A stretch of 63,945 nt of DNA, counting the filler, from Reclinomonas americana ATCC 50394 (Eukaryota), in assembly GCA_048213135.1 (NCBI GenBank). It is 15 parts of 15 records of this genome, joined end to end, with 100 filler letters (N's around TTAATTAATTAA, not from the genome) between each part and the next. Parts side by side here need not be neighbours in the genome. Positions count along the whole stretch, not along the records: positions 1 to 10,751 come from AFZH01021350.1; 14 more parts are not named here. One strand, given 5' to 3'. This document shows, one piece after another, positions 3,158 to 50,787 of the stretch. The position numbers and the translations under genes were made by a program. Within the stretch, counting starts at the first letter, position 1, and every line of letters starts with the position of its first letter. The notes under the pieces are model-generated. The model saw only the letters and a list, made by a program, of their open reading frames with translations, was not told where the DNA came from and made no database searches.

Positions 3158-6100
3158 ATGTCGGGGAAGAGAGGCCCATTGGCTGCCGCTGGTGGTACTG
3201 CTTCCTCGGCAGCCCGAGGGTTGTCATCGCCACAGTTTCACGTTGCTCCTATTGCCGAGGGTCCGCAGCTGGATGAGACACAAATTGACACGCGAATCCC
3301 CCGCTCACCTGGACTACGCGAGGACGATCCTGTGTTGGCACATGTGCGCGTGGCAGTGCATGGTGCGAGTCTGGATATGCAGGCGAGCATGCGAGCGCTC
3401 ATGATTGCAATGATGCTTGCGATCTTACTCGTTTCTGCTGTGACCAGAGTGTGATTGACAAGGTGGGCGACTACGAGGTTCTGCAAGTTGAGGCTGCATT
3501 CATGGCAGCGGACTTGGAGAACATCGATCGAGCGCGGAAAGTGCTCCGGTTGCGTCACTGCGTTTGTGTTTGTCCGTGTTGCCGTGCTCACATCCGCACG
3601 CATACGCAGTGCGCTGATCTACAAGCACGGAATGCTGCACAGTTGCGTTCGCAACGGTGAGCCGTTGCTGCACCGCATCGTCATGCGGAACAACAGAGAC
3701 GTGAGTGTCTGCGTTTCGGCTTCCTCTGTTATGCATGGACGCTCACTCTTGCCTGATCAGCTTGTCCACGAGATGCTGTCACTCGGAGGCAATGCCGACG
3801 AAACCATCAAGGAGGCCATTGTTTCGTGCATACCATGCACCCACAGCGTTCGTGCTCGCTCGTATGTTGACGTCGTTTGTGTCGTGCAGCGCACTGGCAA
3901 CGAGGAGGCAGCCCTCGAATGCACGCAGATGGGAACGAACTTATACACGATTGTCGAGAGCGACGGCAACTCGCTGCTGCAGTTGGTGAGCCTCGCAGTA
4001 GCTCGTTGAGAATGCTTGATCGCGTCGGACTCACTTGCCTGTTGTGCAGACTGCGCTCTACAAATTGCCGAAACTGTTCGAGGCAATGGCACGGCGACTG
4101 ACTGACAGTGAACGCAACCCATTCGGCACTGTGGCTGCGTATCTGGCACACAGGAACTTTACTGGCGGCAATGTGGTGCACTGCATCGTCGAGGAACGGT
4201 AAGGTGCCCGCGTTGGCGAAAATGGTCAACAACGTCTGTCTACGCGCTGCTCACGGTTCTGTTCAGGTCGCTGATGGAACGATTCGACGATTCGCTTAGC
4301 ACTGCCGCCACAAGTGCTGCTGCTGGATCGTCCTCTTCTCCACAGGTGCATATGCTGCGAACACTGAAACAGCTGGACGAGAAACAGTTCGGCGACTTGG
4401 TGAGTGGATGCAGATTCTGAACAGTTGCCAGGAGAGCATGCTGATGACTACTTTTCGCTCGCATAGTGTAACTTGGAGGACAACCAAGGATGTGTGCCGT
4501 ACGAAGTTGCATCGATGGAGTACGCCGAGATGTTGGCGCCGTACACTCACAAGGTACACACGGCCCCCTTATACACACTCCTCTTGTTGTGAATTGTCGA
4601 CATGTTCATCTGCTGCTTTCCAGCGACCTCTGCGTCCGCCATCACATCAGTCGCCAAGCCGTCTGCGAAGCGGTGAACAGCACCCTCTGGATCCGTTCAT
4701 CCACTCACGGCAATACAAGGTCCGTGCATCGTGCGACCCACATGATGGAAGCGCTGATCTGCTTACCGTTCGCCGTCCACAGTACGTGCTGGAAGTTTTG
4801 GAGATGCCGAAGAACGCAGGATCGCGGGGTGAAGTCACGTTGATTGCATCCGGCAGCGACAAGCATGAGCCATTGCTGAGGTTTGTGAGTAGCCGACCAC
4901 ATGGTGATATCTCACTTCCAGGTCTCCTCACAACACCATGTAAAACAGAGAGCTTTTGAGGCGCTTCGTGGACTATGTCGAATGGCGCCGAGACGATGAC
5001 TTCCAAGAGACACCACTTCATGTGGCAACTGCATCCTCGGCACATCAGGTAGCGTTTGCACTCTCTTCATTCTCTTCATCTCACGGCTCTCTGCCTACAA
5101 TGACGATGTGCGTGCAGTGTGTGGCGACGCTGCTCGAGTTTGGTGCAAATGTCGACGCTGAAGATTCACAGGGTGATACGCCAGTATCGTTCTCTGTCGA
5201 GCTGGGCGACGAGCGAATGTTTGAGATGCTTTCCGTCAGAAGTGCGTGTTTGCCAAGTGACTGGCCACGCAGACCCTTCACTAACTCTCACGGTGATGTG
5301 ACATGCACATAGGTCGGCGCCTTTACGAATATAACAACTCGCACGAAACACTGCTGCATGAAGCTGTGGCTACGGGCAGCCTTGGAATCATGCAACGACT
5401 TCTCAGTGGATTCAAGAGCAGCACCAGCTTCAAGACGGTTCACGACTTTGTGATGGCCGGCGATGAGGACAACGTGACAGTATTGCACTCGGCCATGTTT
5501 GCGGCGTTGCGTAAATCGTTGCAGTTGTGCGCATGCTTCACTGCGGATTGCTGATTGATGGTCTGAGGACGACAGGCGGACGCTAAAGGTGAACAGCTGG
5601 CGCACACATCGACTAACCGAGGCTCCACTGTCACCGCGTAGCCGAGAGTCACTGTTGGAGCGATTTGGATCTCCGCTCTCGTCGCCCTTGGGCGACTCAA
5701 TGACCAGTGAGGACATGGACGGTGAGTGCACAGCTCGCTCTGTTGCGTTCTGTTGCTCACAACACTGACGCAGGTGCTGATGCACTGTACAAGGTGGACG
5801 TGGATCCTCTGCAACCCGCAGATGTCGAAAGACAGATAGAACTGTTGCGCGCTCTGTGGACAGGTGGACGATGTGGACCGGCAGATGTGAGTCCAAAGCA
5901 CCGATCCACGCTTGTTGTCTTTTCAAGAGCGGATACTGATACAGTGCGCGTATCTTCTTGTTCCTCCGCGTGTGCTGTGCAATCAATAGCTGTTGCATAG
6001 CGATAACAGCGGCAGTCTGCCTATTCACTACGCAGCCAAAGCAGACGATGCAGCTTCTGTGGAGTTCATGCTGGTCACGGGGCGACTGAACCCCGATGTT

Positions 6101-9100
6101 TGCATGATGGAGCCGGCAAGAGTCGGGGCGACTCCGCTGGGCATCGCGGCTGCGTTGCGACACGCAGAAGTCTTGCGTGTGCTGCTGGATCATGGTGCTG
6201 GCGTGGATGTGCCGGATGCCTCGGGTCGACGTCCTCTGTACCTGGCGTGCAAGTCTGGTGCGTCTGCAGGGTATTCACTTGCTACGAGGTTTAGCTGCCC
6301 TTCTCATTTTCCGCATGCAGGAGCAATCGAGTGCGTGCGATTGTTGCTCGAGGCCGGTGCCGCAATCGAAGCGACCGTGTCACGGAAGAAAGGCGGAGAG
6401 TTGACGGCAGTGGACGCGTGTGTGCAAAGCCGGCATTCGAACGAGGCCAGCACGTGCCTCGAGATGCTGCTTAGGCAAGGTGAGATGCAAAGTAAGATGA
6501 TGACATATGTGCTCAAACTCAATTGAGGGCTTCTCCTCGGGCGCCTTCTAGGTGTTCCACCCAGCATTCGGGCTAGAGTCATGGATGCCGACACTGGAAA
6601 AATTGTTGAAGACGTGAAGCGTACGTTGCTCTACACCCGAAACGGTGCACATGAGCTCGTGAAGGAAATGGAGGTGCGTGACACGTTATTCGTGTGCAGA
6701 GGCCTGCACATGCGACAGGGAAGCACGCATTGCCAGACTTCAGCGCGATCTAATTTCATCACAGGACGAATGTGACCAAGCTCAACGTTTCACTGAAGCG
6801 CTCACCGTCACTACCCAGCAACTGAGACTGGAACTGTCATCCACCACCGCAGACCGTAATCGTCTCCAGAAGGCGTTCGCTGACGTTGAAATCGCGGCTG
6901 CCATCTCCGCCGCCGAGTGCAGAGACCTACGACAAAAGGTGGAGGAGATGGAAGGCCAGCTGCGTGCTCTCTTCCTCATGGATTTTCTCAGGTTTCTTGT
7001 TAATTACGTCGATGACGCTCCTGTATTTGACGTTTCACTTTTCTGTCAAACGCACAGCGACCGCCGTCCAATCTTGATGCTCACCGAAATCGTGCATGAG
7101 ATCATTCCTCTGGCACTCGGCTCTCTGCTACAACAACTCGTCAGTCGGTTCTTTCCTGGCGAATATGATATTGAGCAACTCTGCCTTCCTGCTCCGCCGC
7201 CGAGGTTGCAGTCGATTGCCTTTCCGATATGTTAGTTACCGTCACTTACATTCCGATTTGCAGATACTGTCGGATGACACTGGATAGACGCGGAAACATT
7301 CGCATGCGCTCTGTCGAGTTATATCCTTCCAACTACAAGGCAATCCGCGAATTCAAGCAAAGTGGAGTGACGACGGGCATGGATGTGTCGTTGCTGAGTA
7401 CGCTGCTGCTGTACACAACTTTCGTCTGTACCTCCACTTGCCATGATGGCGATCTGATGGACAGCCTCGTACGCCTCGATCGTGGCACACACAAAGACCG
7501 ATTGGCTGTGCCACTGCTCGCTGACCCGGCTAAAGTATGTCTCTGTTGTCCATCGGATGATCATCTTGTTTGACACGTTTCTCTGTAGATTCGAGCCGTG
7601 GAGAACTTGCGAGACGTGCGGCATCGTGTGTCTCACCTGGCCCGTCTGTCAGCATTGGAAGACACGGAGTACGTGAGCGTAATGCGGTTGGTTCGCGATT
7701 CACTTCACACTCTATTCCCCGATGGACAACACGAGAGCATACGACTCTTGTTCCGAGCATACGACAGTTCCGAATGCGCTCATCACAGCTCTGCGTTGTC
7801 GTTCATTTTTACTCATCCTTCAGTGCAGATGTTAGTCGAATCAATGTGACGGCCGAGTTGGTGAGGGAGAGAACTACCAAGTTCGCAATTCGAGCGCCGG
7901 TAGTGCCGTTCTCCGATTTGATGACTTCAAGACAACTTGCAATCGGTGACGCTTGTGTATGTGCTCGTGTCAGCGCCTTCCGGTGGTATGCATTCTCATC
8001 GCGTTGAGCTTCTGCGTAGGCCAAAATGCGATTTTTCATGCCACGCTTCGTCTCGGCGGTGTGCCGCAAACCGTTGCCTACAAGCGATACCTGGTGAGGC
8101 GACAGGCACGTGAGTTGCAGTCGGCGGACTGGAGACGCATCTACGAAATTTTCGAGAACGAGCACGCACTGTTGATGCAACTCGAGTTTCGTTGCTGTGC
8201 GATTGGTGTGCTCCATTGCCATCCATGGTAGTCATGAATCTGTGTTCGAGTTGTAGTCACCCACACATTGTGAAGCTGATGGCCGAGTGCAACGACGATC
8301 CAAGTGGTCTCGGTCTTGTTCTTGAGTTTGTTGGACGGGAAGAGGAGGATGGCGATGCCGAGACGCTGCATGATCTTGTGAGAGACGGGCAATTGACGAC
8401 CCTACAGCTGCTCTGTCTGCTCTTGCAAGTGGCGTCGGCGGTGGTCTACATGCATTCGCGTCGAGTTGTACATCGTGATTTGAAACCGCAGAGTTGCGTT
8501 TTGTGAGAACTGAGAATGATCATGGCAGAACAATAGTGCATGTGGAGAGAGTGCTGCGAGAAACTGAAAGAGGGAGTTCGTTCTGGCGACTTAGAGCACC
8601 TGTATTGCTGACGTCGATAGGTGACCAAGCTTCTCCCCATGTCGATGCTGGTGTCAGTACTCACCTCACACCTGGCATACAGATATTCTAATCAGCGACG
8701 ACCGAAGTGTTGCAAAGGTGTGCGACTTTGGGGAGGCAAAAATCCATGGGACACTTGGAAAAATGCAGTCGAACCACGGCACAGCTGCGTATGCAGCACC
8801 CGAGGCCATGCTGGACCAGGAGGTATGTGTTCCTCCGTGGTGTGTTGCAGTCTGTCGCACTCTTGCGTTATGAGTGGTTTTGTCAAGTGTTTGTTTGCCT
8901 CTCGCAGTACGACGAACGAGCGGACGTGTATGCACTTGGTTCACTTCTCTGGTTCATTGCCACTCGCCGAGAACCTTTCAGTGGAGTGACGCTGCCAGGC
9001 ATCATGCGCAACATGCATGACAAGGTCTCGCCTGGCAACCTGGATGATGAGGATGTGCGAGCAGCCGTGTCGGAGGATATTCGCAGTCTGATTCGCCAGT

Positions 9101-9277
9101 GCTGGGTTCCGTGTGGGTGCAGAGTTCATAAGTGTCTGGCGACGTGCGCTAATTTCTCTTTTGTTACAGAGGCCTCAGTCTACACGCGTGTCGTCGTCGT
9201 ATGTGCACGACGAACTGAAGCGCATTCTTGAGGCGGCGGGAGAAGCTGACGCAGCGCCGGCTGGGCCGTCACAGTGA
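3158..9277 (+). CDS. Ankyrin-repeat / coiled-coil / HEPN-like / TKL-type protein kinase (~20 exons)
   Basis: Ankyrin motifs QETPLHVA, GANVDAEDSQGDTP, GSLPIHYAA, GATPLGIAA, GRRPLYLAC; coiled coil at ~6700-6970; kinase motifs VAYK, HPHIVKL, HRDLKPQN, VCDFG, GTAAYAAPE, ADVYALG, LIRQCW; stop at 9275-9277. Confidence 0.9.
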
Positions 9278-10464
9278 ACTTCTGAGGAATCCGAAATGTT
9301 AATCTGCTCGCTGCTGCAATGCACAGCGGTGCAAGAAACTGAACAACACCAGTACACAAGTTTGAGCATTAAGTGTGCTGTAGATATACGCATGGTGTAC
9401 ATTGTTCCCCAAAGGCACACTGAACACCCGGACAGTCCTGCTCGCCGACTGTTAAAGGGGGTGGGGGGGTGCTGGTCAACTTGCGACGGCCGCCGGTGGT
9501 GCATTTCATGGTTTAATTCAGCACGGTGAATTGGTATGCGTAGATTGACTCTCGCCCTACAGGTATGCAAAGCAAGAAGGCGAACGGAGTTGGCACCGAT
9601 GAACGGCATCGCTCGGTCGGTGGCTCTACGTTCACTGGTTTTTAGACGCGAAGGTGGTGGCGGGAAGCCGCAGGAGTGCAAGGAGTGCTGCCTTTTGCAG
9701 GAGACAGCTTCCACATGGGTCGGTACAAGTACCTAGACGGGAAGAGAGGGATGGACACGCTTGCTGCGTGATCTGTGGTCACCGAACACAGGTGCACTTC
9801 GCACTCCTGGATTCTCCGGGATGCGTCGCAAAAGATGCGTGGTGCGCCGCACTGCACAGACGATATGCGGCATCGATGCCAGGCACGAAGCTGCGTCTGC
9901 AGGTGCTGCTGTGATCGCCAGTGCAAACGGCACAGAGCGGGTACACCCCAAGTGCTGCGTGGAAGAGTCGGAAAATTACGCGATCCCGGAAGCGGGACGC
10001 TGATTTCTCTGTGCCATCGTTTATCACGCGCGCTTCTTGCTTGCAGTGCTGTGACATGATGCGAGGAGTGCTGCTCTGAATGACTGTGCACTCTGCATTC
10101 TGTGTGTGACATTCACAGAAATGCGGTCGGCATCTCGGTCAGGTGTGTGTGTGGGTGAACTTTGTCACCCGCGTGTGGCGCTTGCTCCGCCACGCAGCAG
10201 CATCACACGTGCTGCATATTCCCACAGCGTGCAAGAATGCATATACACGGAGGCCGAAGAAATAAGAGGGCTGAGAGAGAGTGAGGGAGAGCGAGAGAGA
10301 GATGCCGAGGATGAGGTAGGTCGCCTCTCTCGATCCACAGTGAGGTGAGTAGCAGAGAAACACATGGCTGGTGGGTCGCTATGAGAGGGTTGTGCACAGC
10401 GCGAAGAGCGAGAGAAGGTGTCTCATGCATTCAGCTCTGAGAGGAGAGATGGCATTGGTCTCAC

Positions 10465-10751
10465 AGTTGCATGTGGAGAGATCGACTCAGAGAGGGAGAA
10501 GGCGGTGAGCGAGAACAGGAGTCGACACAGCGAGGAGGGAAGGGTGCTGCAGTGGTGGATGTATCGCATCTCAGCACACAGTGAGGGAGGTATCTCCGGT
10601 TCCTCACTGTTGCATGTGGAGATCGACTCAAGAGAGGGATGGGGCGGTGAGAGAGAACTGGAATCGACACAGCGAGAGGGGGGAGGGTGCTGCAGTGGTG
10701 GATGCATTGCATCTCAGCACACAGTGAGGGAGGTATCTCCGGTTCCTCACA
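10465..10751. repeat. Tandem duplication of ~143 bp at contig end
   Basis: GTTGCATGTGGAGA...GGGTGCTGCAGTGGTGGATG...CAGCACACAGTGAGGGAGGTATCTCCGGTTCCTCAC occurs twice. Confidence 0.7.
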
Positions 10752-10879: not shown

Positions 10880-12463
10880 CACCAATATTGACATAGATAA
10901 TGGTCGGAATCAGCAGCCCGTTGGTGAGGAAAACGGCGAGTGTGTGCTTGCCCCTGTAGTTGGCCATCTTGGTGCGCTGCACCGCCGGGCAACAGCGGCA
11001 CAAGCAACCGAATGTGTCGATCAGCGCCAGTCCAATGCCCTTGAAGCACGGCTGCGCCACTACCGGCGCATCCTCGGCCTTGTTGGGCACCGGTGCCGAC
11101 GACAGCAGAGCGTTGCCGCTGCGGGAGGCGCCGGCGCCGGTCCGCTCGCCCTCCTCACGGCCGTCACCCTCATCGCCTTCTGCATCGGGTGCGCGCATCA
11201 TCTCCGGCTCCACCTTGCTGCTGCCCTGCTCCTTGTTCTCCTCTCCTTCTCCTTCCTCCTCGGCGTCGCTGTCGACCTCGTCGCCGTCCACCAGACTGCT
11301 GAGTGAAACCGTGCGCATCTCCACATCTTCGGTGGCGGCACGCGACGCCGGTGCCGACTTGGCGAATTTGGGACTCTCGCGCAGCGTGAACACGCCGAGC
11401 AGCACGGCCATACTTGCCAGTGTGGAGGAGACCACGGACGGCAGCAGGAAGGGGAAGGAGCGGAAGAATGCATTGTCGAAGAGCGCCCAGTGGGCGGCGG
11501 GGTTGGCCAGTGCGCCGCCGACGAGCGGACCGGCCATGAGGCCTACATAAGTGGGTGAATGAGTGAGCGGGAAGGGATAAGGGAGAGAAAAGAGGCCATG
11601 TGGACTCACCCAACCCCCACATGCCCGACATGACGGAGAAGCCACGAGCCTGCGACAGAGACAATAAAATCGCAAGCAGATGCCGGTGCCACCACCTGTG
11701 TCACTAACCTGATTGGTGCTGTCGGTCAACTCGGCTGTGCCACACATGGTGGTGAGATGAAGAAGCATTGAACGAAGAACAACAGGGTGCATCTCACCGA
11801 GATATGTCTTGGCTTGTGCGACATTCCCGCTGAGCAAGCCGGCCAGGGAGCGGAAGACGACAGCCGACGCAAAGTTCACTGCCGCAACACGAGGAATTTA
11901 GTGGAAGAGAATTTGTGCAACAAAGCAAGTGCACGACTCACCAGAGAAGCCAAAGCCGAGCGAGGTAATAATGAGTCCTGAGAGCGGATGGGGTGAATGG
12001 ACAGAAAAGAGGAAAGGAGTTGGAGAGATCACGCACCGGTGGTCCCAAAGATGAGCACCGGCCGCCTGCCCACTCGATCTGCCAGCGAGCCAAAGTATGG
12101 GCCCGAAAAGAATTGCGACATGGCGAATGATCCGGCCAGGAAGCCTGTGAGGGTGGGGAGGGAAAGGATGGGAGTGAGGGAGAAGAGGGTGGAGGGGGAG
12201 GGCGGGTGAAGAGGAGAAGAATGGGGAGAGAAAGGGGTTGAAAACGCAGCACAAGACGGGCAAGAAAAGCGGAAGAGGAGGAGGAAGAAGAAAAACAAGA
12301 TGAAGAGGGAGGAGGGGGATTGAAGGGGGAGGGAGATGAGAAGGAGAGGAGAANNNNNNNNNNNNNNNNNNNNNNNNNNNNNNNNNNNNNNNNNNNNTTA
12401 ATTAATTAANNNNNNNNNNNNNNNNNNNNNNNNNNNNNNNNNNNNNNNNNNNNTCCTCTCTCT

Positions 12464-12525
<62 letters not shown>

Positions 12526-12934
12526 CCCTGTCTCTTTCCCTTCTCTCCCTTCTCACGCACCTGCCCAATAACCAATCGCACTCTTCTCATGCGCCATCCC
12601 AAAGAACTCAATCATACTCGGCAAGTACGGAAACACATTCGTCTTCACAAACCAACAGAGAAAGAGAGAGAGAGAGAGAGTGAGTGCAAAAGAGAAAAGA
12701 GAACACACATCATTTGACACAAACGCAACATAGTTGAATGACTGCACAATAAGAGTGAGAGGAGCAGTGAGAGAGAGGTGCATGTGTGTGTGTGTGTCTC
12801 ACCTCGCAAAACTGAATGAGTGCAATCACAAGCAACTGCTTCAACGGAAGTGGTGTTCTCTTCACTGAGGTGGGCGAAGAAGAAGGAGAAGAAGAAGTGA
12901 CGGGAATCGCCACTTGAGAGGCTCCGCGTAGCAT
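10880..12934 (-). CDS. MFS transporter, ZIFL/DHA1-like (3' end truncated, spans a gap)
   Basis: TPLPLKQLLVIALIQFCE, VFPYLPSMI, IGYWAGFLAGSFAMSQF, MFS motif A GSLADRVGRRPVL, RSLAGLLSGN, AELTDSTNQARGFS, GPLVGGALANPA, FPFLLP. Confidence 0.9.
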
Positions 12935-25367: not shown

Positions 25368-27126
25368 CAACACGTCGAGGTCCTCGAGGAGCGGCAGCTT
25401 GCGCTCGACCAAGTAGTTTTCGATCTTGGCCCGGTTCTCCAACTCTGCAAACACGTCACCAAATCTCGTGTGCCACACGCTCGTCGTTACGGTGAAGAAA
25501 CACTCACCACTGGCGAGACTCGGCGTCAACGACTGGGCGAGGTCGTCGGCCGTCCGTGTGGAGTACAAGCTGCTGAGGCTCTTGCGCGATGTAGACATGG
25601 CCGAGGTCGGTCGGGCATCCACCGACGAAGCGGTCGACAGCCGGCCAAGCATGTCCAGTGTTGGCGGCAGCACTGCAGAAGAAGACGAGCGGGGGGCCGC
25701 GCTGGGAGGACGAGAACCGCCACTGATGCTGCCGTCGTCGTCCTCATCGTCGTCGTCTGCGAGCAGTATGATACCACCGTCGCTCTCCGGCACCTCACGG
25801 CGGTACCGCTTGTACAGTTCCTGATCGCTGGTGGTCGTGTGTAGTTTGCATGTGTGAGGAGGAGGGGGAGAGGCACGACGACAGAGAGAGAGAGAGACAA
25901 CGGCGAGAAGACGCAACACCGTGGCTCCACAGTACATGCGTTCCTCTTTGCTGACCTCCACCTCGTCCAACGACAGCAGCTGCGTGAAGGAGCGCACCAG
26001 TGTTTCTCGATAGTTTGGCAAGCTCGTCACCGGATTGTTGTGCATCATCAGGTAATGCAAGTTGCTCGGCATCTGATCCGTCTCCACCTCCTCGATGCGA
26101 TTGTACGACAGATCCAACACACGCAGCGTGTCCATGGAGAAAATGCCCTCCACTCGCTCAATCTCGTTGTGCGACAGATCCAAGAAGCGCAGATTGTACA
26201 GCAGCTCCAGGTTCTCGATCCTGCGAATGCAATTCTGCAGCGGACACTCGTGGGTCAACGATCGACTGCAGGTATGGCGGCGACGACAACAACAACGCAC
26301 GTGCTGCAGGTACAAGTTGGTGCACTCGGAGAAGCACTCGAGATTGTCAATGGCACGGATACGTCGACCATCGAGACGAATGTGCGTGATGCGGATCGAC
26401 TGCTCCACCAGATCCAACTCCTCCGGTCGCTCGCCGTCGGTGGACAGTGGAAAGCTCGTCTCAATCACCAACGAGGGCGTAATGGTGGTGTACGACGACC
26501 CCAGCACTCCCGACGACGCCACACGCTGCAAATCCGGTCGCTCAGAGACGATATCTTCACAAGCAGTGAGCGGCACAGTGAAGAGAGCACAGAGGTGCGT
26601 GCACAGACACACACCAGCGTACAGCTCATCCGCCTGCTTCTCCATCAGAACCTGCTGACGAGCGGCCCAGACATCGTCGTCTTGCAGTCGCGACATGCTG
26701 TCCTTCATGGCTGCAGACGAGACAAGTGAGACAGAGAAAGTAACAAGAGAGTGGAGCAGCACGCGTACCATTCGCCACCAGTTCGTCCACCTCACCACTC
26801 AACGCAGCCGCTGTGACGAGTGAGCGCGCGCGCGTGATCAACTGATGGAGAGAGACAACTGACTGACCACGATCATCCTCTTCTTCTTCGTCATCGCCTT
26901 CGCGCGCAGGCCTCAGTGATAGCTTTGGCATGCCCAGACTGGTCGCTGTGACCGAGGAAACACCCACAATCAGTGCGTCATCGGCTTCCTCGCGTCGTTC
27001 CTCGATTTCGCGCGCTGCTCTCTTCACATCGCGCGTGGCCGGGCCCAGGCGGCGACCAGCACTGCCTGGACGCGCCTTCTTGCCTCCACTGGCGGTGGAG
27101 GAGGCGGTGGGAGGGCGACTGCTCAT
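25368..27126 (-). CDS. LRRC46-like leucine-rich repeat protein (3' truncated)
   Basis: SDS22-type LRRs ITHIRLDGRRIRAIDNLE, NLYLQHNCIRRIENLE, LRFLDLSHNEIERVEG, LDLSYNRIEEV, and an LRR cap NNPVTSLPNYRETLV..LLSLD. Confidence 0.8.
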
Positions 27127-27350
27127 TGCTCTGTCTCTCTTGTATGTGGATGATGATGCAACGGACAGAGGACAGAGAAGATGTACAACAAACAAAACAC
27201 TTCATTCTTCTTTTTCTTCTTTCTTANNNNNNNNNNNNNNNNNNNNNNNNNNNNNNNNNNNNNNNNNNNNTTAATTAATTAANNNNNNNNNNNNNNNNNN
27301 NNNNNNNNNNNNNNNNNNNNNNNNNNCCGTCCCTCCCCGTCCCCTCCCTC

Positions 27351-27404
<54 letters not shown>

Positions 27405-27431
27405 CCCACTCTCCCTCTCCCATCTCCCTTC

Positions 27432-28468
27432 ACGCAACATGGCAGTGCGAATGGGCACGAGCGGGAAGAACGCGAGGCGGGCGACAAAGAATGAAATGGC
27501 AAAGACGATAAAGGTGACGTCGACCAGCTTCTCCAGCCTCAGGTAGCGGAACGACTTGGCCGAGTACAAGAAGATATCCGACACATCGTGCAACAGCAGC
27601 AGCAGCAGTCCAATTCGATGGTACCTGTGCGTGTGCCGCAGCGCAATGAGCAAGATCTCGCAGCAACAACTAAAGCGTGGCAAGGCGAGCACGCACCGCG
27701 CCCACGCCGAGAACAAGATCAGCATGATGGTGGTCACGTGATGCACGACATACACCCAGAAATCGTCGAGTCGTGTCTCGAAAAAGTGCGACACCAGTGC
27801 CTCCACGTAGAACGCCAGCTCCAGCAGGTAGTACAAGAGGAACGCCGGCCTGTGCAAAAAACACGAGTGAGCAGGCACGTCGCGACGAACTGCAACATTG
27901 AGACAGTGCGGAGTGCACCTGAACGGTTGCAGAGGCCAGTTCGCCCAGATATTTGAGATGGGGAAGAGGGTCCACTCCTCGGTCATAAACACCCACATGG
28001 CCATGGAAAACGCCAACGTGTAATACGTGGCGTACCACGAGTTCTCCATAAACTTGCGCTCCAATTTGCGAAACGATGCATCGTACGTGGCACGATCCTT
28101 CTTCTCGCCGTGCCATCGCCGGAAGAAGCGCAGTGCGCAGAAGCGGAAGGCGTTCTTCACGACGAAGAAGCCGAGGGCGAGAATGCAGACGGGAACGAGC
28201 GCGCGAGCCTCGTAACCGACGCGCTGCGGGTCGCTAATGTAGTGCTCGTTGGCCGCGCGAGCCACTGCATCGTGCGTGTAGGTGCTCACATCGTCGCCTG
28301 CGTAGTCCACTGATAGCCTGTGTGACGCACACACACAACGCATATTTTTTATGAGGATGCGCATACACACACACGAGACACGCATTTCATCGCCTCTCTC
28401 TCTGTGCACACACACACACACACTCACGGTTCGAGATACCACGAGATACTCGACCACGGAGAAGACAT
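27432..28468 (-). CDS. Ceramide synthase (LAG1/TLC domain), 3' truncated
   Basis: KFMENSWYATYY, IWANWP, YYLLELAFY, and the Lag1 motif RLDDFWVYVVHHVTTIMLI...RIGLLLLLLHDVSDIFL. Confidence 0.92.
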
Positions 28469-29424
28469 TCGTTGTGTTGTGTCCACGTGTGCGTTTGTGT
28501 GTGTTGGTGTGATTGTTTGGGGCGCGTGCTCGCGAAAAACATATTCTCTTTTTTTGTCGTATTTGGCGAGAGAGGGAAGCGGACGGCGATCCCTGGTACT
28601 GCTATAGATGGCGATGGCGAGATGGTGGTGGTGTGTCTGTCTATGTGATGATTGCAGGTCGAGTCGTGATCGGTACACGATCGATATATCGATAGCGACA
28701 TATATTGAATGTGTACATGCAGGCGCACACGCAGATAAAGCGAACGGATCGCGACTATGTGGTGTCACGCCACGTCGTCCGATCACCATGGCGGGGCAGT
28801 GGAGAGCGGTGAATCGAAAAGAGAGGAGGGCATTTTTTGGCCGATCGGAGTTGCCTTACATAAGCGCCGGTTTTGTGCAACGCACGGCGGCGGCAGCGTG
28901 CGTTCGTTGCGCGTGTATGCGCGAGAGGTTGAGCAAGTCGATGTTCTCAGACTCCACACTCTTTGCAGGAGTCTTCGACTCTCGGAGACGTGCATGGGTC
29001 CAGATTTGTGACTGGTGGAGAAGGAGACAGCGCCCTGCTTCCACTCGCAGCAACCAGCTGCTGTGGTGCTGCGGTGATGTTCAGTGTCACTCACAACTCG
29101 GCTGCCATCTCGCTCCTCCTCCACCGCATACGGTGACGCCTCACTCGATTTGCCTTCCCGCCGTCACTGACGCCAACCCCACCAACATGCAGAGCCTCGC
29201 TGCGGAAGCCACTTCTTGCAACCTCAATGAACTCCAGATCCACTCCCCCCAGCAGCTGAGAGCTCCCACACCACGCGAGCCTCTCCACTCACCTCCAGGA
29301 TTTGCATGACGCGTGGATCGTCACCGCTGCGCCAGCTACTGCACCTGCTTGTGGAACCTCACCATCGCTGTCGCCTCATAGTTGCTGCGACCATGTCACA
29401 AACGCTTGTGCAGTGTACATTCGC

Positions 29425-30694: not shown

Positions 30695-32145
30695 GGACTC
30701 GGTTGTTCTCTGCCTGCGCGGTCGCACATTCGATGTCAAGGAGGTACATGCACGTTGGTCAGTCGCTCCTCCTCAATGCGTGCTACTGATTGTGTGATCC
30801 AAGGTGGAGACGTCAAACACGCTGCTGTTTGTGTCGCCCGAGTCGGTGCAAGCAAGTGGATTCGATGTGATTCAACCGGAAGCCGATGCAACGGTTGGTG
30901 TGGTGTCACTGTCTGTCTCGCCCGCTCTCTTGTGACTCTGACGAGGGCGCAGCTGACGGTGAGCTTCTCGGCGGGATCGTACTTGGAGCTGGTGGCCGCA
31001 CTGCCACGGTTGCATCAGCTGCGGGAGTTGCTGCAGCGTGCGGCGTTTGCGGGCGAGGAGTCGGAGGTCGATGAGGATGGGCAGCCGAGACCGCTCGGCC
31101 ACTCGTTGGAGGAGCTGGAGGATCGCGTGCAGGCCAGTCGTGATGAGATTCTGAGAGGGCTGCACGAGTTCCGTGCGTTCAAGGTCAATGGTGAGGCCGC
31201 TCCCTTTCCCCTCTCTCTTTGTCTCTCATTATCAACGCTGGCGCGCCTGCAGGCAAGTACCGCGTCTTTGAGAGTGAGCATCTGGCCACCGTGTTCGACA
31301 CAATTCTGGCCGACATTCTCGCCGCCAGTGGCGACATTGAGCGAGTGCGCTTGTCGGTGCTTCGTCTCGCCATCCCCGACATGAGCGACATTGATCTGGC
31401 CAACTGTCTCTACGTGTACGGCACTCCACACGATGCGGCGATCCAGTTGTTGCGTACTACGAAAGATGTGCTGTTCGCAGTCCTCTTGTACTCACGCGCC
31501 TCGCTTCACTGCAGCGACGAGGACTTTGATGCCACGAAAGTCGAGTTGTGGAAACTCGATCGGCGACTCATCTGTCGGCACCGAGCACTCGAGTTTCTCA
31601 CTCTGCACGAGGTTGGCTCGCTGTCTCTCTGCTTCTCTTTGCCTTCCATGTCACTCGGTCGCTCACTGCGCGCAGTCGTGGGGTCTCGAAGAGTTCATGC
31701 AAGTGTGGTCGGAGCAGATGCCCAGCTCGTGGAGAATACAACCGTCGTTGGACATGATTGCTGTTGCGTCGCGCACGGGTGCTTGGCTGGTGGCGATTCT
31801 CTCTCATCTCACCCCCCTCATCAGGACATGATGGTGGTGATCACGCAAGGCCTGGACACGCACGTGCGATATGTGGATTCGGCGCAGTTGCCGGTGACCC
31901 TCAAGGCGCGCGTACGACACCTCTTTGGCCTGAAACCCAAGTGGAAGCTGGCTGAGTTGACCCCGTTTGTAAGGTGCGTGTGTGTGTCGCTGCACATTTC
32001 CCTTTTCGTCCCGACCCACCCCAATCTTCCCGACCACAGAAAGCTCATTCCACCCAGTGTCAAGGTGGAGGAGAGCTTGCGCCCATTCGTTCGCATCCAC
32101 GCCGACGAAGCCGACCCATCGCTGCTGTGGTTTACGTTGCGGTAA
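30695..32145 (+). CDS. DCC1: Sister chromatid cohesion protein DCC1 (Ctf18-RFC subunit); 5' end in gap
   Basis: DSVVLCLRGRTFDVKEVETSNTLL, PRLHQLRELL, VQASRDEIL, WGLEEFMQVWSEQMP, LPVTLKARVRHLFGLKPKWKLAELTPFV. Confidence 0.88.
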
Positions 32146-32199: not shown

Positions 32200-34112
32200 T
32201 CATCTTCGTCGCCGCATGCCGTCGTCACTGCTGTGAGTGCTGTTGTTGTGGCCGCCTCTACTCGTACTGCCGCTCCGTAGTGATTGCAATGGTGGTGGTG
32301 GCGATGGCCGCCGCTGCTGGTGTTGCATGTCGGCGTCGTCGTCTCGCTTGAGGAGTGATGGGTTCCACTGGACGCGCCACTCATCGACACACAGCTGCAC
32401 TCGGCTCGTGTCCCACCCGGAAGCCGCCACGGCCTCGATGAAATCGTCCACCATGGCGCGATTCTCAAACGCCTCGTCGGCAAACAGCTCGCCCTCTAGC
32501 GCGAATCGACGCAACAAGGCGTGCGTGTACGCCCGCAAATGGTCCAATGGCGTCGTGCCCTCCTCAAACACCACATACGCCGTTGGACCGCTCATGTCCA
32601 CGGAGAGGAGCCACCGGTGCTCCCGTGCCACACTTTCGTGCAGGCGATCCACAGTGAGGCGCACGGCGCGCAGCGGCACACCGAGGTGGATGCGGAACGC
32701 AGACTCGTGCACGGCATCCCACCACCAAACGCTCTCGACTTTGGCCAACTCCGCCGGACGGGAGAGTGCCTTGCGTCGGCGGCTGCCAATGAACTCGCGC
32801 AGCAGCAGGGTGACGCGCTGACGATTCAGCGATTCCAGCTGCCGTCAGCAAAGAGTCAGCAAAGGGGAAAGGGAGCAGGAGGTGCCTGTGGGACAGCACG
32901 ATACGGCGCACCTGCAACACGCGAACCGCGCGGTAGTTGCAGAACAGATGCATCGCGACGAGTGCAAGAAACACCGCCCAACAAATCGCCGCGCTTTTCA
33001 CAATGGCCGGCGTGACCAGCAGACCAACTGCGGAACCCACGAGTCCGACAGCAATCTCCTGCGAGCCATCCTTGGCGCTCACCTACAAGCCACAAACGGC
33101 ATTAGACGATTCTCTTTCTCTCTTTCGCGCGCGAGCGTGTAGGTGGGTGGTGGAGATGTTGCAATTAGCGTACAGCGGACACAAAGAGCCACCACCAACG
33201 CAACATCGGCCATATTATGCGCGCGAGCCTGGTGTTGTGTGATGGCCGCGCGAGTGGCACCCCCCGCCACATCGGTGACCGCCCGCACCAGCGCCGCCAG
33301 GCAAGTGCACGCGAAAAACCTGTGTTCGGAAAGAATCACCAAAGATGGACACACATGCATACGGGGGAAGGGCCACACACGGACCATGTTCTCCGTCCTT
33401 CGAAGAGCGCCCCACCCGCCAGCTCCACCAACATTGCCACATCGCACGCGATATCCGCCACCAACCGCCACGTTTTCGGGTTGGCGTCGAGGCCCGCCGA
33501 CTGCACCCGGGCCCACCCAAACCAAATCTTCCCAATGCGTGAACAACCGTCGCTGACAATCCACGACAAGGTGACCGCCAAAGGCGTGCTGCTGGCGTCG
33601 CCCACACCCACTCCTTTCAGCATCGCGTGTGTCGACAGGATGCCCGCCAGACAACTGCACAACGCCTGCATCGTGTCCCACTGCGATATGCAAAGTTAGA
33701 GTGAGCAAGAGGAGGAAGTGGACATCGTCAGCCACGTCGTGTGCATGTGCGCGCGCCCCCTCACCAACTGGTACTGCAAGTAGTCTGGAGACACAGAGTT
33801 GGGGAAGCCCGCTGGCAAGAAGCACGAGGCCACAAAGGCGGCCAGACGAGTGCGTGGGCGATCGAGTGACGAGTGTTGGCGATCGGGTTGCACGCTGTGT
33901 GCGGGGAAGAGAGAGATGGGAGGAGAGAGAGAGAAGGAGGGGGGAGAGCGTGATGAGATCGGTTGGGCATGTCGCCAAACGAGAACCGAGGCAACGAGTG
34001 TGTGTGTCAGTGAGTGTGTTTGTGTGCGCAACATCCGGTTGTCGGCCACAGCATAAGATCGTGTGTGGTGGGTAAGTGGCGATCGTTCACTGGCAATCAC
34101 GTTTGCGTCCAT
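32200..34112 (-). CDS. RUS1: RUS1/DUF647 family protein (RUSF1-like)
   Basis: FLPAGFPNSVSPDYLQYQLWDTMQALCS, AMLKGVGVGD, LDANPKTWRLVAD, VAGGATRAAITQHQARAHNMADVSAKDGSQE, HLFCNYRAVR. Confidence 0.93.
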
Positions 34113-37345: not shown

Positions 37346-37420
<75 letters not shown>

Positions 37421-37711
37421 CTACTACTACGTACGTACCGTACCGTACCGTACCGTACCGTACCGTACCGTACCGTACCGTACCCGTACCNNNNNNNNNN
37501 NNNNNNNNNNNNNNNNNNNNNNNNNNNNNNNNNNTTAATTAATTAANNNNNNNNNNNNNNNNNNNNNNNNNNNNNNNNNNNNNNNNNNNNGTACGACCGA
37601 CGACGGACGTACGAACGTAACGACGTACCACCGTACGACGACGACGACGTACGTACGTACGACGACACACACACACACGACGAACACACACACACACACA
37701 CACACACACGA

Positions 37712-37770
<59 letters not shown>

Positions 37771-38795
37771 ACCTGCATCATAGCATCATCAGCCGACGCC
37801 GGCACTGCCGCCGCTCCCGCCGCCGTCGCAGAAGACGAAGACGCCGTCACGATATCCATGAGCAGCGGACTCAGTTTTTTCTTGCGCTTCTTCTTCATTT
37901 GCGTCGGTTCTATTATCGCAGTCGAGGCTGTGGCACCAGCAGAGAGAGAGTGAGGCCAAAGTGAATTCATGCGCGATCAAAGTGCATTCAAAGTGGGCGA
38001 TCTACACATGGACGGGGGATGAGAAGGAGAGAAAGTGAGAGGGGGAGAAAGAGTGTGTGAGTGTGTGAGAAGAGAGAGGGAGAGAGAGAGAGAGAGATGA
38101 GAGAAGGAATGAGAGTGAGACCAAAGTGCATTCGTGCGCGATCAAAGTGCATTCAAGTGGGCGATCTACACATGGACGGGGGATGGGAAGGAGAGAAAGT
38201 GAGAGGGGGAGAGAGTGTGAGTGTGTGAGAGAGTGAGAGTGAGATGAGAGAAGGAATGAGAATGAGACCAAAGTGCATTCGTGCGCGATCAAAGTGCATT
38301 CAAGCGGGCGATCCACACTTGCGAGTGCGCACCAAGAGTATGCATGTGTGCACAGGGGGAGAGAGACAGAAAGAGAGAGAGAGAGAAGGAATGAGACTGA
38401 GACCGAAGTGTTTCCGTGTACGTTCAAAGTGCATTGAAGAGGATGATCTACACTGCGAGTGTACACCATGTGAAAGAGAGCGTGTGAGTGTGTGAGAAGA
38501 GAGAGGGAGTGTGTGTGAGACAGCGAGAGTGAGATGGGAGAAGGAATGAGAATGAGACCAAAGTGCATTCGTGCGCGATCAAAGTGCATTCAAGTGGGCA
38601 AACTACACCAGCCGAGTGTGCACTTACAGAGAGTGTGCGTATACGTGTGCAAATGAGCGAGAGAGTGAGAAGAAACACGAGACGAATGAATCATGCGCAG
38701 CCACTTGAACGTGAAAGTGTGCTCGACCAAAGTGCATCACACACACACGAGAGACACACAAAGCACACGCAACACTTATCAGCCGCGTCACCCAT
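34459..38795 (-). CDS. CABLES-like cyclin-box protein; spans two gaps
   Basis: N-terminal AALAFLSSIPL motif, YDPYFLDDPDMRGGSRRSVRSLPSFMVS, DLRAELQAQFREKHEW..ITLSRIRKVK, TVALSYVYFEGLV, IAVKMNE. Exons 38795-38774 and 37928-37773 are phase-compatible with the exon starting at 36702. Confidence 0.82.
36895..37270. repeat. Intronic degenerate repeat, about three units of 130-150 bp
   Basis: CTCTCGC(C)AAC(GA)GYGGGAACTCAACC-like blocks near 36899, 37031 and 37177. Confidence 0.55.
37955..38610. repeat. Intronic tandem repeat, five units of 135-165 bp
   Basis: CCAAAGTGCATTCGTGCGCGATCAAAGTGCATTCAAG and variants recur near 37956, 38121, 38268, 38403 and 38558. Confidence 0.85.
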
Positions 38796-41800: not shown

Positions 41801-44800
41801 GCACAAGACGACGCCGAAGTGGAGGTCGTGTCGCCGGTGCCGCAGACCGGCATGTCGCTGTCCGATGTGTTTGCCACGGCCGCTNNNNNNNNNNNNNNNN
41901 NNNNNNNNNNNNNNNNNNNNNNNNNNNNTTAATTAATTAANNNNNNNNNNNNNNNNNNNNNNNNNNNNNNNNNNNNNNNNNNNNGCGTTTTGGCTGACGC
42001 TCGAGGTGATGCGTAGTTGAGCGCCGAGAAAAGCATCGAGCGCATGTGCTGAAGGAGATTCGTGACACCGAGGACAACTACGTCAAGAGCCTGCAATTGG
42101 TCGACGAGGTGTGTATGTGTGTGGGTGAGGGGGAGTGACAAAGAGTGGGCGAATGGGTGGCTGAGTGCACCTCCACATCGCAGCTCCTTCACAAGGCGTT
42201 CTCCGACTGGGCCTCGATCGGCATGCAGTTTGGCAATCTCGCCATCACACCGCAGATTGTACGCGACATTTTCTCCGATCTGAAGGTAGGAGGAGTGTGC
42301 ACATTGTTGGCGTGAGAGAGAGGGCACTTTTCCTCACGATGCACCCACGCAGGTTATCCTCAACGTCAATCGTCGTCTCCGTGACGATCTGTTGTCGCAC
42401 GACGACCCCACTGGACTGGCCACCGGGCAAGTTTTCGTCACCATGGTGCGTCGTAAGCTAAATTTGCGATTTTCCGGTCTCTCTCGTCAATCGCTAACTC
42501 GCTCTCCTCCGTCGCAGGCTCCGTATCTGAAGACCTACTCGACCTACTGCAAGAACTACGACACGTCACTGTCGAGACTCGCGTTGCTGAAGAAGAACCC
42601 CGAGTACTGTGCCACCGTCTCGGTTTGTGCACACTTTCTCGTTGCTTGTAAGGCTGGTTGTTCTTACCGCGCCGCGCCACAGCAAATTGAGCGTGATCCT
42701 CGGTTCCGTGGACTCGATCTGTCTGCGTACCTGATCATGCCGATCCAGCGCATTCCGCGTTACCTACTGCTTCTCGGTGACCTGTACAAGCACATGCCGA
42801 ATTACCTGCGCGAAGCCCGCGAAATGGTGAACAAGGCGCTGACAGCGATTCGCGAGGTCGCCGGGCATCTCGATTCGAGCGTCAAGGCCGCCGAGAGTGT
42901 CCTCAAGGTGGCCGCCATCCAGGAGCAGCTCAGCGGTCTCACGGTGCGTTCTCACTTTAACGCACACACACAGAGCGATCGGTGTGGTGAATGAGCTGAC
43001 TTGCATTTCCGATGCCACAGGAGCAACTCTTCCAGCCGCATCGTCGCTTTGTGCGCGAGGGCACACTCTATCGGTGGCCGGTGGCTCGCGGATCAGCAGC
43101 CACTGCAGCCTCGTCGACATCACCACCACCAGAAACCGAAAAGTTGTGTGTCGACACACTGCACTGTGTTTCCTTTTTGCATCGCTCACTCAACATTTCA
43201 TGCTCCGTGCGTGCAGGACTGAAAAGACGCGCCTGCGCTTCTTCCTCTTCAACGATCTGCTTCTGTTTGCGAGCAAGGCGCTCGGTCGACTGCAGTATCG
43301 CGGTTCGCTGATGCTGACGCCCACGTCAACGGTTATCGATGACGAGCCGTCGTATGCACCTCGCGAGGCCCGCGACATGGGCGCGTTTTGTGTGCGTCCT
43401 GTGAAGGGTGCCGAGGGCGACACGCTGGTTATTGCGCACGAGGAACGCGATGAGACGCTGGCGTGGAGAGCCGACATTGAGACGACGATCGAGCAGAATA
43501 GTGCCGAGTCCTCCAAGGCCGTCACCATGGAGGATCGTCGCAAGACCAAGTTTCGTGCAGGGATAATGGGGGTAGGAAAAGGGAGGCAGTGTCTCACCTG
43601 CGCCTGTTTCCTTTGCAGGGTGGCCAAGCAACAAGCGACGTTCGACACGACGCTGGATGTCGCGCTGCAGACCAAGGACACGACGAGCACGATGAGCATT
43701 GAGGATGCCATCAGCGTGCTGTTGCACGGTGCGCCGCTTCTCAAGTTCCCGCGCACGGGCGCACCGCAATTCCGCGAGTTCTCCGTTGCGTGTGCATTCG
43801 AAGCCAGGAAACAAGTTGCTGCAAACTCACCTCCTCTACAGTTGTCCCCGAATCGCCGCTTCCTGAACTGGGCGACGACGAAGAAGGGCAAGAACAGCAC
43901 TGTGGACCTGTTGCAGGTGGAGCGTCTGATTGAGGGGCAACATACACAAGTGTTCCGCAAGCATCGCGACCCGAATCTGGAGAAAGTGTGCTTCTCGCTC
44001 GTGCTTCGTGATCGGTGAGCGAGGGGAAAAGGAGTAGTAGTCGACAAGGAGTTGTGTGCTCATTGCGTATTGTGTGGTAGGACTGTGGACATTGCGTGCA
44101 AGGATCGCAGCGAGTACGACATTTGGCTTTTCGCGCTGGTGCATCTGATTCGCTTCTGGAAGGCGTCACCCGATGCGAATGAGGCTGCACGGATCTTCGA
44201 GTCGGGTGGCCGATTCGACTCGCCGCTGTCGGCCTCGTCGCCAGTATCGGCGCCGGGCACACCGAAGGCAGGGGTGCGTCGTATCCCCGAAGGGAGATTT
44301 GTACGTTTTGACTGGCTCACTGTGTGGTTGGCAGGAGATGACACGGGAGCGCGGAGCATCTGCCTCTGGCGGCAAGTCGCAGACCTCGACGCTGACCAAG
44401 GCCTTTGAGAGTTGCGTGCTCCGGTCTATGCCGTGTCGCGCGCCTTGTCGAATGTGCACTCATTGCATCCTCTCTTTTTTCCACATAGACATGATGGACA
44501 TTTACTTGTGGGGCCAAGGCGAGTCGGGAGCACTCGGCAATGGCCGTGAACAGGACTCGACAATCCCGCTGGTCGTCAAGGACTTTTTGTTCCTCGAGGC
44601 GCAGTCGGTGGCGTGTGGATCGCAGATTGCCGGCGCCTGCACAAGTTGCGTCTCTGCGTGGGTCGTTGGTAAGGCATGGGTTGTCTGCTCACTCTATGAT
44701 TTCGTGCAGGAACCGGCCAGCTGTTCACGTGGGGCAGTGGACGCAGTTACCGACTTGGTCACGGCGACATTGAGAGCCAGTTCCGACCAGGTGCGAGAGA

Positions 44801-44964
44801 GGGGCGAAGGAGAAGGGGAAGGGGAGAGGGAGGGAGAGAAGGGGAATGGGAGGGAGGGAGAAAGAAGGAGGAGAAGGACAAGAAGAGCAACAACAAGAAG
44901 AAGAAAGAAAGAAAGGAGAGGGAAGGAGAAAGAAAGGAAGAAAGGAGTGGACACAGCGTGCTTG

Positions 44965-45059
<95 letters not shown>

Positions 45060-46680
45060 NNNNNNNNNNNNNNNNNNNNNNNNNNNNNNNNNNNNNNNNN
45101 NNNTTAATTAATTAANNNNNNNNNNNNNNNNNNNNNNNNNNNNNNNNNNNNNNNNNNNNACCGATGGTGTCGGAGGGTGGTACGTGACTGCGTCGCATGT
45201 TTGCACTCTGTAAGTGTGCGTGTTTGAAATCTCACTTTTGTTCCCGTCGCAGGCTCGAAGACAGTGGTGGCGCCGGTGGAAGTCACTGCTCTCAGCGGCC
45301 ATCGCATTGCACACATTGCCGTGGGTGACTGGCATAATGCGGTGTTGACGAGTTGCGTGCGTGGGAGAAGGATAGAGAAACAGGTTGTATTAGTGCCACC
45401 CACTGCGTCTGAGAGCGCGAGAGTTCATCGTGACAGCTAAACTAGAATAACTTGCTTGTGGTTGAGCAAGTGGGTGCATTTTCAACTGCTGGGGTGTGTT
45501 TCCGAGTCTGACAGAGAGAGAGAGAGAGAGAGAGAGAGTGAGTATGAGTGAGCGTGTCGAGAAGAGCCAGAGAATGAGTGAACACACAGCATTTAGAGCT
45601 TAAAAGCGTACATGTGAAGTCTGTGAGTGGTCGCGTTATTCGTGTGAGCGCGCTGTGCTGCTCTCTGTCTTCGCCACTCACATTTTCTTGCCGCCATCAC
45701 AGGCGACTATCGTGTGTTCACGTGGGGCGCCGGCTCGGAGGGCCAACTCGGTCACGACATGCAGCCACTGCACGACATTTCGCAGCCGACTGAGGTGCAG
45801 CAGTTGTCGGAGTGGGGCAAGCGCATCAAGCGACTGGCCTGCGGAACGTGGCACACAGTGGCTCTCGATGGTGAGTCGCACCACCCTTCCCCTGACGCAT
45901 GTGTGTGTGGATGTGCTTACTTATTTGTTCGCTCGTGCAGAGGACGGCCTGGTGTTTGTGTGGGGAAGTGGCTCGTTCGGTCAACTGGGCGTGTTGGTGT
46001 GCGACTCGCGCGACGTGCCGATTTGCGAGGAGCTGGTCGTGCCGACGCCGATTGTGCTCGAGTTTTTCCAACGACACAACATCATCGTGGATGAGGTGGC
46101 GTTGTCCTTGATTTGTCTGTTTGTGTCATCGTTCATGCCTTGATCCTCACCCATTTATTGCCACCAACAGGTGGCATGCGGCAGCTGCCACACCGTGGTG
46201 CTTTCGCGCAACGACTGTGTGTACACCTTCGGCAACAATATGTACGGTCAGGTTGGTGCCGGCTGCCACAAGCAGCGCGGCGAGGATGTGTACGAGAATT
46301 TGTGGCTGCCGATTCCGGTGATTTTGGATCCAACAATTCCAGGGTGCGTTAGGGGAGAAGGGGAAGACAAGGAGGAAGAGAGGGAAGAGGAGGAGAAGAG
46401 AAGAGGAGAGCAGACTGCGATTTGAGTGAAAGTGAGGAGTGGGAATGGGGAGAGACGCGATAGATCAAGGGGAAGAGTGGTTTGTGAGTGTGTGCAGTGA
46501 TAGGAAGGGGAAATATGAATGAGTGCAGAGAGTGAGTGAGCGTGAGCGAGTTTGCGAGTGTGCGCAGTGAGAGGAAGAGAAAGTATGAGTGAGTGCAGAG
46601 AGTGAGTGAGAGGGAGTGTGTGAGAGGGGAGTTTAGGGAGAGAAGGAGGAGACGAGAGAGAACTGAGGAACGGGGACTGG

Positions 46681-50700: not shown

Positions 50701-50756
50701 AAAAGAGAGCTGAAGCAAGAAGGTCTACAGCGCAGGCACAACACAGTCTCTCAATG

Positions 50757-50787
<31 letters not shown>

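Follow-up and report, generated by a model that had tools for sequence, protein, structure and literature searches.

A predicted ankyrin-repeat kinase of Reclinomonas americana with a candidate, very divergent HEPN domain ahead of the kinase

Positions 3158-9277 (plus strand) of a 63,945-nucleotide stretch of DNA from Reclinomonas americana ATCC 50394 (assembly GCA_048213135.1; the whole stretch, at its full length, is called the window below) were found to hold what reads as an intron-dense eukaryotic gene encoding a large signaling protein of ~1364 amino acids (aa), with 26 predicted exons and 25 introns. The order of its parts, namely ankyrin repeats, a coiled coil, a helical middle domain of ~200 aa and a kinase, is supported by one continuous frame spliced at GT-AG introns and by Pfam matches to the ankyrin and kinase parts, in agreement with the initial annotation of the locus. 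The middle domain may be a very divergent HEPN-type domain of the DZIP3/CXorf38 kind with a candidate ribonuclease (RNase) site, the likeliest of the readings considered, to which a probability of about 0.45 was assigned.

The middle domain is encoded by three plus-strand exons, designated a (7058-7204), b (7264-7534) and c (7589-7766). Exon a encodes a candidate N-terminal amphipathic helix, exon b carries LYPSN (7319-7333) and DVSLL (7382-7396) followed by a stretch that is probably loop-like, and exon c carries RDVRHRVSH (7610-7636), after which come a short loop and another helix. The end of this last motif, RHRVSH (7619-7636), is an R-x4-H sequence. All four motifs were read on the plus strand in the spliced translation, in which the peptide strings quoted by the initial annotation, RHRVSH included, reappeared once the GT-AG introns were removed. 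The HEPN_DZIP3 family has a signature of two helices, D-[IV]-[ST]-L-L and R-x-x-R-N-x3-H; here, DVSLL precedes RDVRHRVSH by 58 residues. RHRVSH also has the general form of the HEPN motif (R-x4-6-H, the Arg being followed by a polar N, D or H), with His in that position.

The bare R-x4-H pattern occurs three times in the 1364-aa model, compared with 3.8 occurrences expected per shuffled protein (20,000 shuffles), and it is necessary but not sufficient for a HEPN assignment because that many are expected by chance. The longer motifs are each found once in the model, R..R....H as RDVRHRVSH and D[IV][ST]LL as DVSLL, and their combination, with D[IV][ST]LL followed at a distance of 30-120 aa by R..R....H, arose in 5 of the 20,000 shuffles, a count that refers to a pattern picked post hoc.

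The arrangement of these motifs fits the published description of HEPN domains. The HEPN survey places the motif where helix 3 ends, ahead of the loop to helix 4, describes helices 2 and 3 as frequently separated by a long insert and helix 2 as often having an acidic residue, and gives the residue after the Arg as 'mostly N, D or H' (PMC3710099). The replacement of the usual Asn by His, which the initial annotation had set down as a departure from the family, is on this account an accepted variant. A possible layout of the middle domain runs from the helix of exon a through the DVSLL helix, an irregular stretch of ~40 aa, the RDVRHRVSH helix and a short loop to a last helix. Exon a would then provide helix 1; the DVSLL helix would be helix 2, with its acidic residue and with the long insert behind it; RDVRHRVSH would be where helix 3 ends and would hold the R-x4-H site of an RNase that needs no metal; and the last helix of exon c would correspond to helix 4.

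A language-model search of the ESM Atlas with exon c also pointed toward HEPN. Its neighbors included DUF4559 (score 0.87) and HEPN_DZIP3 (0.85), each with 177 of 256 features shared, followed by HEPN_DZIP3 together with DUF4559 (0.76) and by HEPN_Swt1 (0.75), and the Pfam-named neighbors, among those listed, were all HEPN-type. DUF4559 is a family which we take to be the CXorf38 HEPN family. On the scale of this search a score below 0.9 is a lead only, while pairs from the same family usually share at least 170 features.

A number of results weigh against a HEPN identity and have to be set beside these. Within the Atlas search itself, the scores of the HEPN-named neighbors were all below 0.9; the consistency flag for exon c, by which 3 of the 10 best family-bearing matches share the family or clan of the best match, classes the top family as 'probably wrong'; the two nearest clusters (0.91) were unnamed phage (Uroviricota) proteins of 53-64 aa; and exon b was poorly recognized (recognition 1231), its best neighbor being an unnamed one at 0.78. 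The chance frequency of the bare R-x4-H pattern belongs here too, as does the post hoc making of the compound-motif test. In profile searches, no family at E≤10 was matched in Pfam, NCBIfam or PADLOC by exon a, exon c or the b+c read-through (P0001, in which the in-frame 54-nucleotide intron was retained with an X at each of its two stops), PF18738, PF15112 and PF18731 being among the Pfam families left unmatched. Exon b alone, compared with Pfam only, gave just the unrelated MotCF (E 0.21). The HEPN_DZIP3 (PF18738) match that the initial annotation had put forward as a check was consequently not obtained at E≤10 with exon a, b or c or with the b+c read-through. As HMMER filters remove most matches above an E of ~0.1, and as the query was a read-through and not the exact splice, these profile nulls mean that the domain is not a recognizable Pfam member, which is a different statement from its not being HEPN.

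No solved HEPN structure in the PDB was matched by sequence, and a single-sequence AlphaFold2 prediction of the b+c read-through gave an unusable model with a predicted local distance difference test score (pLDDT) of 35.8 and a predicted template modeling score (pTM) of 0.23. The same unreliable model, in which exon a was not included, has helices over and after the motif and a long non-helical stretch before it, a pattern compatible with a HEPN fold. An exhaustive HMMER search with exon c found 0 of 1,835,955,588 representatives at E≤0.001, the 59-aa query limiting its power; word-index protein searches returned 132 candidates of longer lengths for exon b (0 at E≤1) and 88 of near lengths for P0001 (0 at E≤10). 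Pattern matches in metagenome contigs (588 for exon c and 301 for exon b) and in viral contigs (21 and 6, respectively) included none that was confirmed. The 64-kb window holds no paralogue of the middle domain, and none of the searched collections produced a homologue against which conservation of the Arg and His might be judged. Two further results concern resemblances of another sort. In PHROGs the sole match was phrog_12594 (a 55-aa profile of unknown function), which exon c reached at E 0.04 and P0001 at E 0.23, exon a having no match at E≤10; its likeness to exon c, and that of the phage clusters, may be a generic helical-hairpin resemblance. Matches of exon b (residues 24-82) to PCNA, at E 9.7e-5 for a 798-residue fused chain in which no single stretch passed and at E 0.45-1.2 for the others, were judged spurious.

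These negative results lend weight to a serious, if tentative, alternative, namely that the kinase has in the middle region a helical linker specific to its lineage, or else a domain for its regulation or dimerization, with no nuclease function, RHRVSH and DVSLL having arisen by chance. In one form of this explanation a bundle of helices could hold the kinase in position or autoinhibit it. No search found a relative of the domain, none of four hidden Markov model libraries (Pfam, NCBIfam, PADLOC and PHROGs) contains a relevant family that it matches, the chance expectation for R-x4-H is ~3.8 per protein, and the Atlas evidence consists of scores under 0.9 with exon b unrecognized. A linker of this kind, however, would not readily account for Pfam-named neighbors of exon c that are all HEPN-type instead of a mixture of helical families, nor for the presence of both motifs in the right order and at the right spacing, a combination seen in 5 of 20,000 shuffles. 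The agreement of the layout with the helix-3 to helix-4 description also speaks against it (PMC3710099). On balance, the DZIP3-type HEPN RNase proposed in the initial annotation retains its Atlas neighbors and its motif layout, lacks a Pfam match and stands as an identity that is not established.

It is improbable, on the other hand, that the domain has a HEPN fold but serves as a non-catalytic module for binding RNA or protein, with the kinase as the sole enzymatic output. HEPN families with inactive or altered motifs do exist, and for the DZIP3 family the survey's entry calls the motif 'mostly conserved' (PMC3710099); in addition, His stands in place of the usual Asn, and inspection by eye showed no Ex3[KR] motif in the candidate helix 2. 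R-x4-H nevertheless has its Arg and its His, the His after the Arg is among the variants accepted in the survey's motif description (PMC3710099), and the sequence bears no sign of inactivation.

A faulty gene model is another explanation to which we would give little credence. It holds that the ankyrin, middle and kinase exons come from at least two transcripts, or that some of the middle exons are not expressed, so that the architecture would be an artefact. The joining of the exons was read from the DNA alone. For the 3' half, introns were picked for GT-AG ends and an open frame, which gave exons at 6765-6991, 7058-7204, 7264-7534, 7589-7766, 7829-7945, 8020-8185, 8257-8492, 8683-8822, 8908-9105 and 9170-9277; the GT-AG introns bordering the middle-domain exons lie at 6992-7057, 7205-7263, 7535-7588 and 7767-7828. 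The extension to a 5' ATG was made with a simple dynamic-programming script that had learned codon usage and splice sites from the 3'-half exons; because its training came from the 3' half of the same gene, the model is approximate in its 5' half. Several junctions also have alternative in-frame GT-AG options. Against this stand an unbroken chain of 26 exons, bounded on the plus strand by an ATG at 3158 and a TGA ending at 9277, in which 25 of 25 predicted introns are GT-AG and 52-190 nucleotides long. In this model the introns are richer in T than the exons (0.297 vs 0.217), with a G+C content of 0.514 compared with 0.558 in the exons. Moreover, nowhere from the ankyrin exons through those of the coiled coil and the middle domain to those of the kinase is there a gap of a size to hold a promoter or terminator, and a start codon for the kinase must come from the exons upstream. 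By this logic the exons between 3158 and 9277 would be joined into one transcript. It was also observed that the predicted intron at 6992-7057, between the coiled-coil exon and exon a, is 66 nucleotides long, in frame and free of stops, and its retention would just add 22 residues. A death-fold or MLKL-type helical bundle was considered for the middle domain as well and was dropped, no Pfam match being found in its support.

The kinase, together with its linker, occupies 7829-9105 on the plus strand in five exons, three of which (8258-9105) matched Pkinase (PF00069). The exon at 8258-8491 did so with E 5.3e-11 (42.9 bits, cut-off 31.7) and the next two with E 1.1e-6 (28.7 bits) and E 5.5e-4 (19.9 bits). 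VAYK (8073-8084), HRDLKPQN (8471-8684, split by an intron), DFG (8724-8732) and APE (8796-8804) were all read directly on the plus strand, as was the alphaC Glu, which is present in ENEHALL. A Pfam score above the cut-off and the presence of K, E, HRD, DFG and APE place the domain in the protein kinase superfamily, and the catalytic K, HRD and DFG listed in the initial annotation are indeed retained. Its further description of the kinase as intact-looking applies to these residues and does not extend to the glycine-rich loop, IGQNAIF (7942-8036, plus strand, split by an intron), which keeps the first Gly alone of the three in G-x-G-x-x-G; alternative splice choices at that junction, inspected by eye, leave the glycines unrestored. 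Nor does it extend to the two exons of the N-terminal lobe (7834-8183), which had no Pfam match at E≤10. With a degenerate glycine-rich loop and unrecognized N-terminal lobe exons, catalysis is possible and nucleotide binding by the kinase may be atypical.

The nearest solved kinases to the central exon were AMPK and DCLK1 (CAMK-type, 29 bits) and the nearest to the exon of the C-terminal lobe was TAK1 (E 0.0017, 22 bits); the proposed assignment to the tyrosine kinase-like (TKL) group is tentative. Pkinase outscored PK_Tyr_Ser-Thr on all three matched exons, and a word-index protein search with the kinase exon at longer lengths returned 618 candidates, 0 of them at E≤0.001. The C-terminal kinase is, judging from its sequence, probably a divergent one of Ser/Thr type. 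The last exon (9170-9277, plus strand) encodes a short C-terminal tail and the stop codon.

The ankyrin repeat array lies at 4944-6523 on the plus strand and was identified by Pfam matches. The open reading frame (ORF) at 5990-6523 matched Ank_2 (E 4.6e-14, 53.2 bits, curated cut-off 27.3), Ank (47.3 bits), Ank_5 (42.4 bits) and Ank_4 (41.0 bits), that at 4944-5309 matched Ank_4 (E 4e-7, 30.6 bits) and that at 5297-5551 had a weak Ank_2 match (E 0.007). Scores of Ank families above their curated cut-offs were thus obtained, and the presence of ankyrin repeats is well grounded. Further upstream, the ORFs in 3158-4417 had no match in the Pfam scan; ankyrin-like cores were seen by eye from ~3640 onward, and a loose regular expression picked out three upstream cores, at residues 123, 202 and 252 of the model. 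Between the array and the middle domain, the coiled-coil exon (6765-6991, plus strand) matched ADIP (E 0.0015), CENP-F_leu_zip (E 0.0036), KIF21A_4th (E 0.013) and Filament (E 0.053), all below the curated cut-offs, a set of matches typical of a generic coiled coil.

We infer a HEPN fold, RNase activity, activation as a dimer and whatever part this protein may have in immunity or cell death, and with these a working scheme can be drawn up. The ankyrin array would offer a binding or sensor surface to which a partner or ligand attaches; the coiled coil would pair two chains; and a composite RNase site would arise between the paired middle domains, in the manner of other HEPN enzymes. The kinase beside them might then undergo trans-autophosphorylation or act as a nucleotide-bound regulatory scaffold. 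Taken as a whole, the picture of a protist-assembled, RNase-L-like effector, in which an ankyrin sensor and a coiled-coil dimerizer drive a DZIP3/CXorf38-type HEPN RNase upstream of a competent kinase, with cleavage and phosphorylation co-activated toward an antiviral or cell-death end, is doubtful; the antiviral or cell-death role in particular would be conjecture by analogy with RNase L.

The closest comparison for the middle domain is with the DZIP3/hRUL138 HEPN (PF18738) and CXorf38/DUF4559 families, which are expanded in cnidarians, molluscs and Capsaspora. As in that type, the candidate is an all-helical domain (~150-200 aa) with an R-x4-H, a second Arg before it and an upstream helix resembling D-[IV]-[ST]-L-L. 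Unlike that type, it has no Pfam profile match at E≤10 and has His for Asn after the Arg, so that at most it can be said to 'work like' a DZIP3/CXorf38-type HEPN domain. It is also joined to ankyrin repeats, as in the DZIP3/hRUL138 family, for which Table 1 of the HEPN survey records ankyrin fusions and an expansion in Capsaspora, a unicellular relative of animals; a kinase fusion is not among the entries of that table for the family (PMC3710099).

If the middle domain is HEPN, the protein would resemble RNase L and IRE1 in having a kinase-fold and an R-x4-H domain and, as regards RNase L, ankyrin repeats. RNase L and IRE1 are activated by dimerization, and by analogy the same would plausibly apply here. 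The order of parts differs, RNase L being built as ankyrin, kinase and KEN and the present protein as ankyrin, coiled coil, candidate HEPN and kinase. No KEN domain was found after the kinase, and Ribonuc_2-5A was unmatched by Pfam in the tested exons. The protein ends ~35 aa past the kinase, which excludes a KEN domain at that position. As the kinase is followed by a short tail alone and no profile match was obtained, the protein falls outside the KEN family, and KEN-domain homology was accordingly dropped as a candidate. The candidate domain resembles the DZIP3 type and not KEN, and this kinase, unlike the pseudokinase of RNase L, keeps HRD and DFG.

A combination of ankyrin repeats and a kinase in one protein is common and unremarkable alone. 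In joining ankyrin repeats to a Ser/Thr or TKL-like kinase within one chain, the protein is like the ankyrin-repeat kinases of the ILK, TNNI3K, ANKK/RIPK4 and DAPK types, whereas the coiled coil and the orphan 200-aa helical domain between the repeats and the kinase are extra to these. The kinase is also divergent in comparison with theirs, its best solved matches reaching 22-29 bits per exon. A literature search at abstract level found no description of such a fusion, which is not proof of absence.

The surroundings of the gene are unremarkable. The window has a G+C content of ~0.55, and its Pfam-matched ORFs include an F420_oxidored/pyrroline-5-carboxylate-reductase-like one at 1906-2508, LRR at 25323-26798, a TLC domain at 27282-28601 and UVB_sens_prot at 33082-34086 (all three on the minus strand), Dcc1 at 31195-32142 and RCC1 at 44149-45108. 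By their domain matches these look like ordinary nuclear eukaryotic genes of housekeeping type, and no mobile-element, viral or defence-type Pfam family was found among the 16 large window ORFs scanned. A second kinase-like ORF was seen at 16218-18158 (647 aa), of which residues 96-186 alone match Pkinase (E 2.9e-23). Positions 17096-18090 consist of a 21/42-bp tandem array, in which the 42-bp unit recurs ~24 times with 76% matches, and the ORF is inflated because within this array several frames stay open on either strand. Several tandem repeats lying between genes, with a unit length of ~140-290 bp and in many cases GA/CT-rich, were observed at 66-614, 1364-1777, 10460-10751, 38076-38599, 50353-50810 and 59871-60274, along with long CT/AG microsatellites (e.g., 12456-12547, 37348-37422, 44968-55). 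Strong local GC and AT skews in the window are due to these repeats and microsatellites.

Any novelty of this protein would possibly be confined to the inserted domain and to the order of parts. Should the middle domain not be HEPN, the gene would simply add to the known run of ankyrin-repeat kinases, this one carrying an orphan linker domain, and such proteins are ordinary in protist kinomes. If the HEPN RNase is real, it would represent a DZIP3-type HEPN domain in a kinase fusion, a combination that does not appear in the table of the HEPN survey (PMC3710099). A HEPN nuclease, a kinase and ankyrin repeats would also have been fused independently a second time, outside the lineage of IRE1 and RNase L and in another order. 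The finding would then bear on the reach of the animal-type DZIP3/CXorf38 HEPN families into protists and on how readily immune effectors composed of a sensor, a nuclease and a kinase are reinvented.

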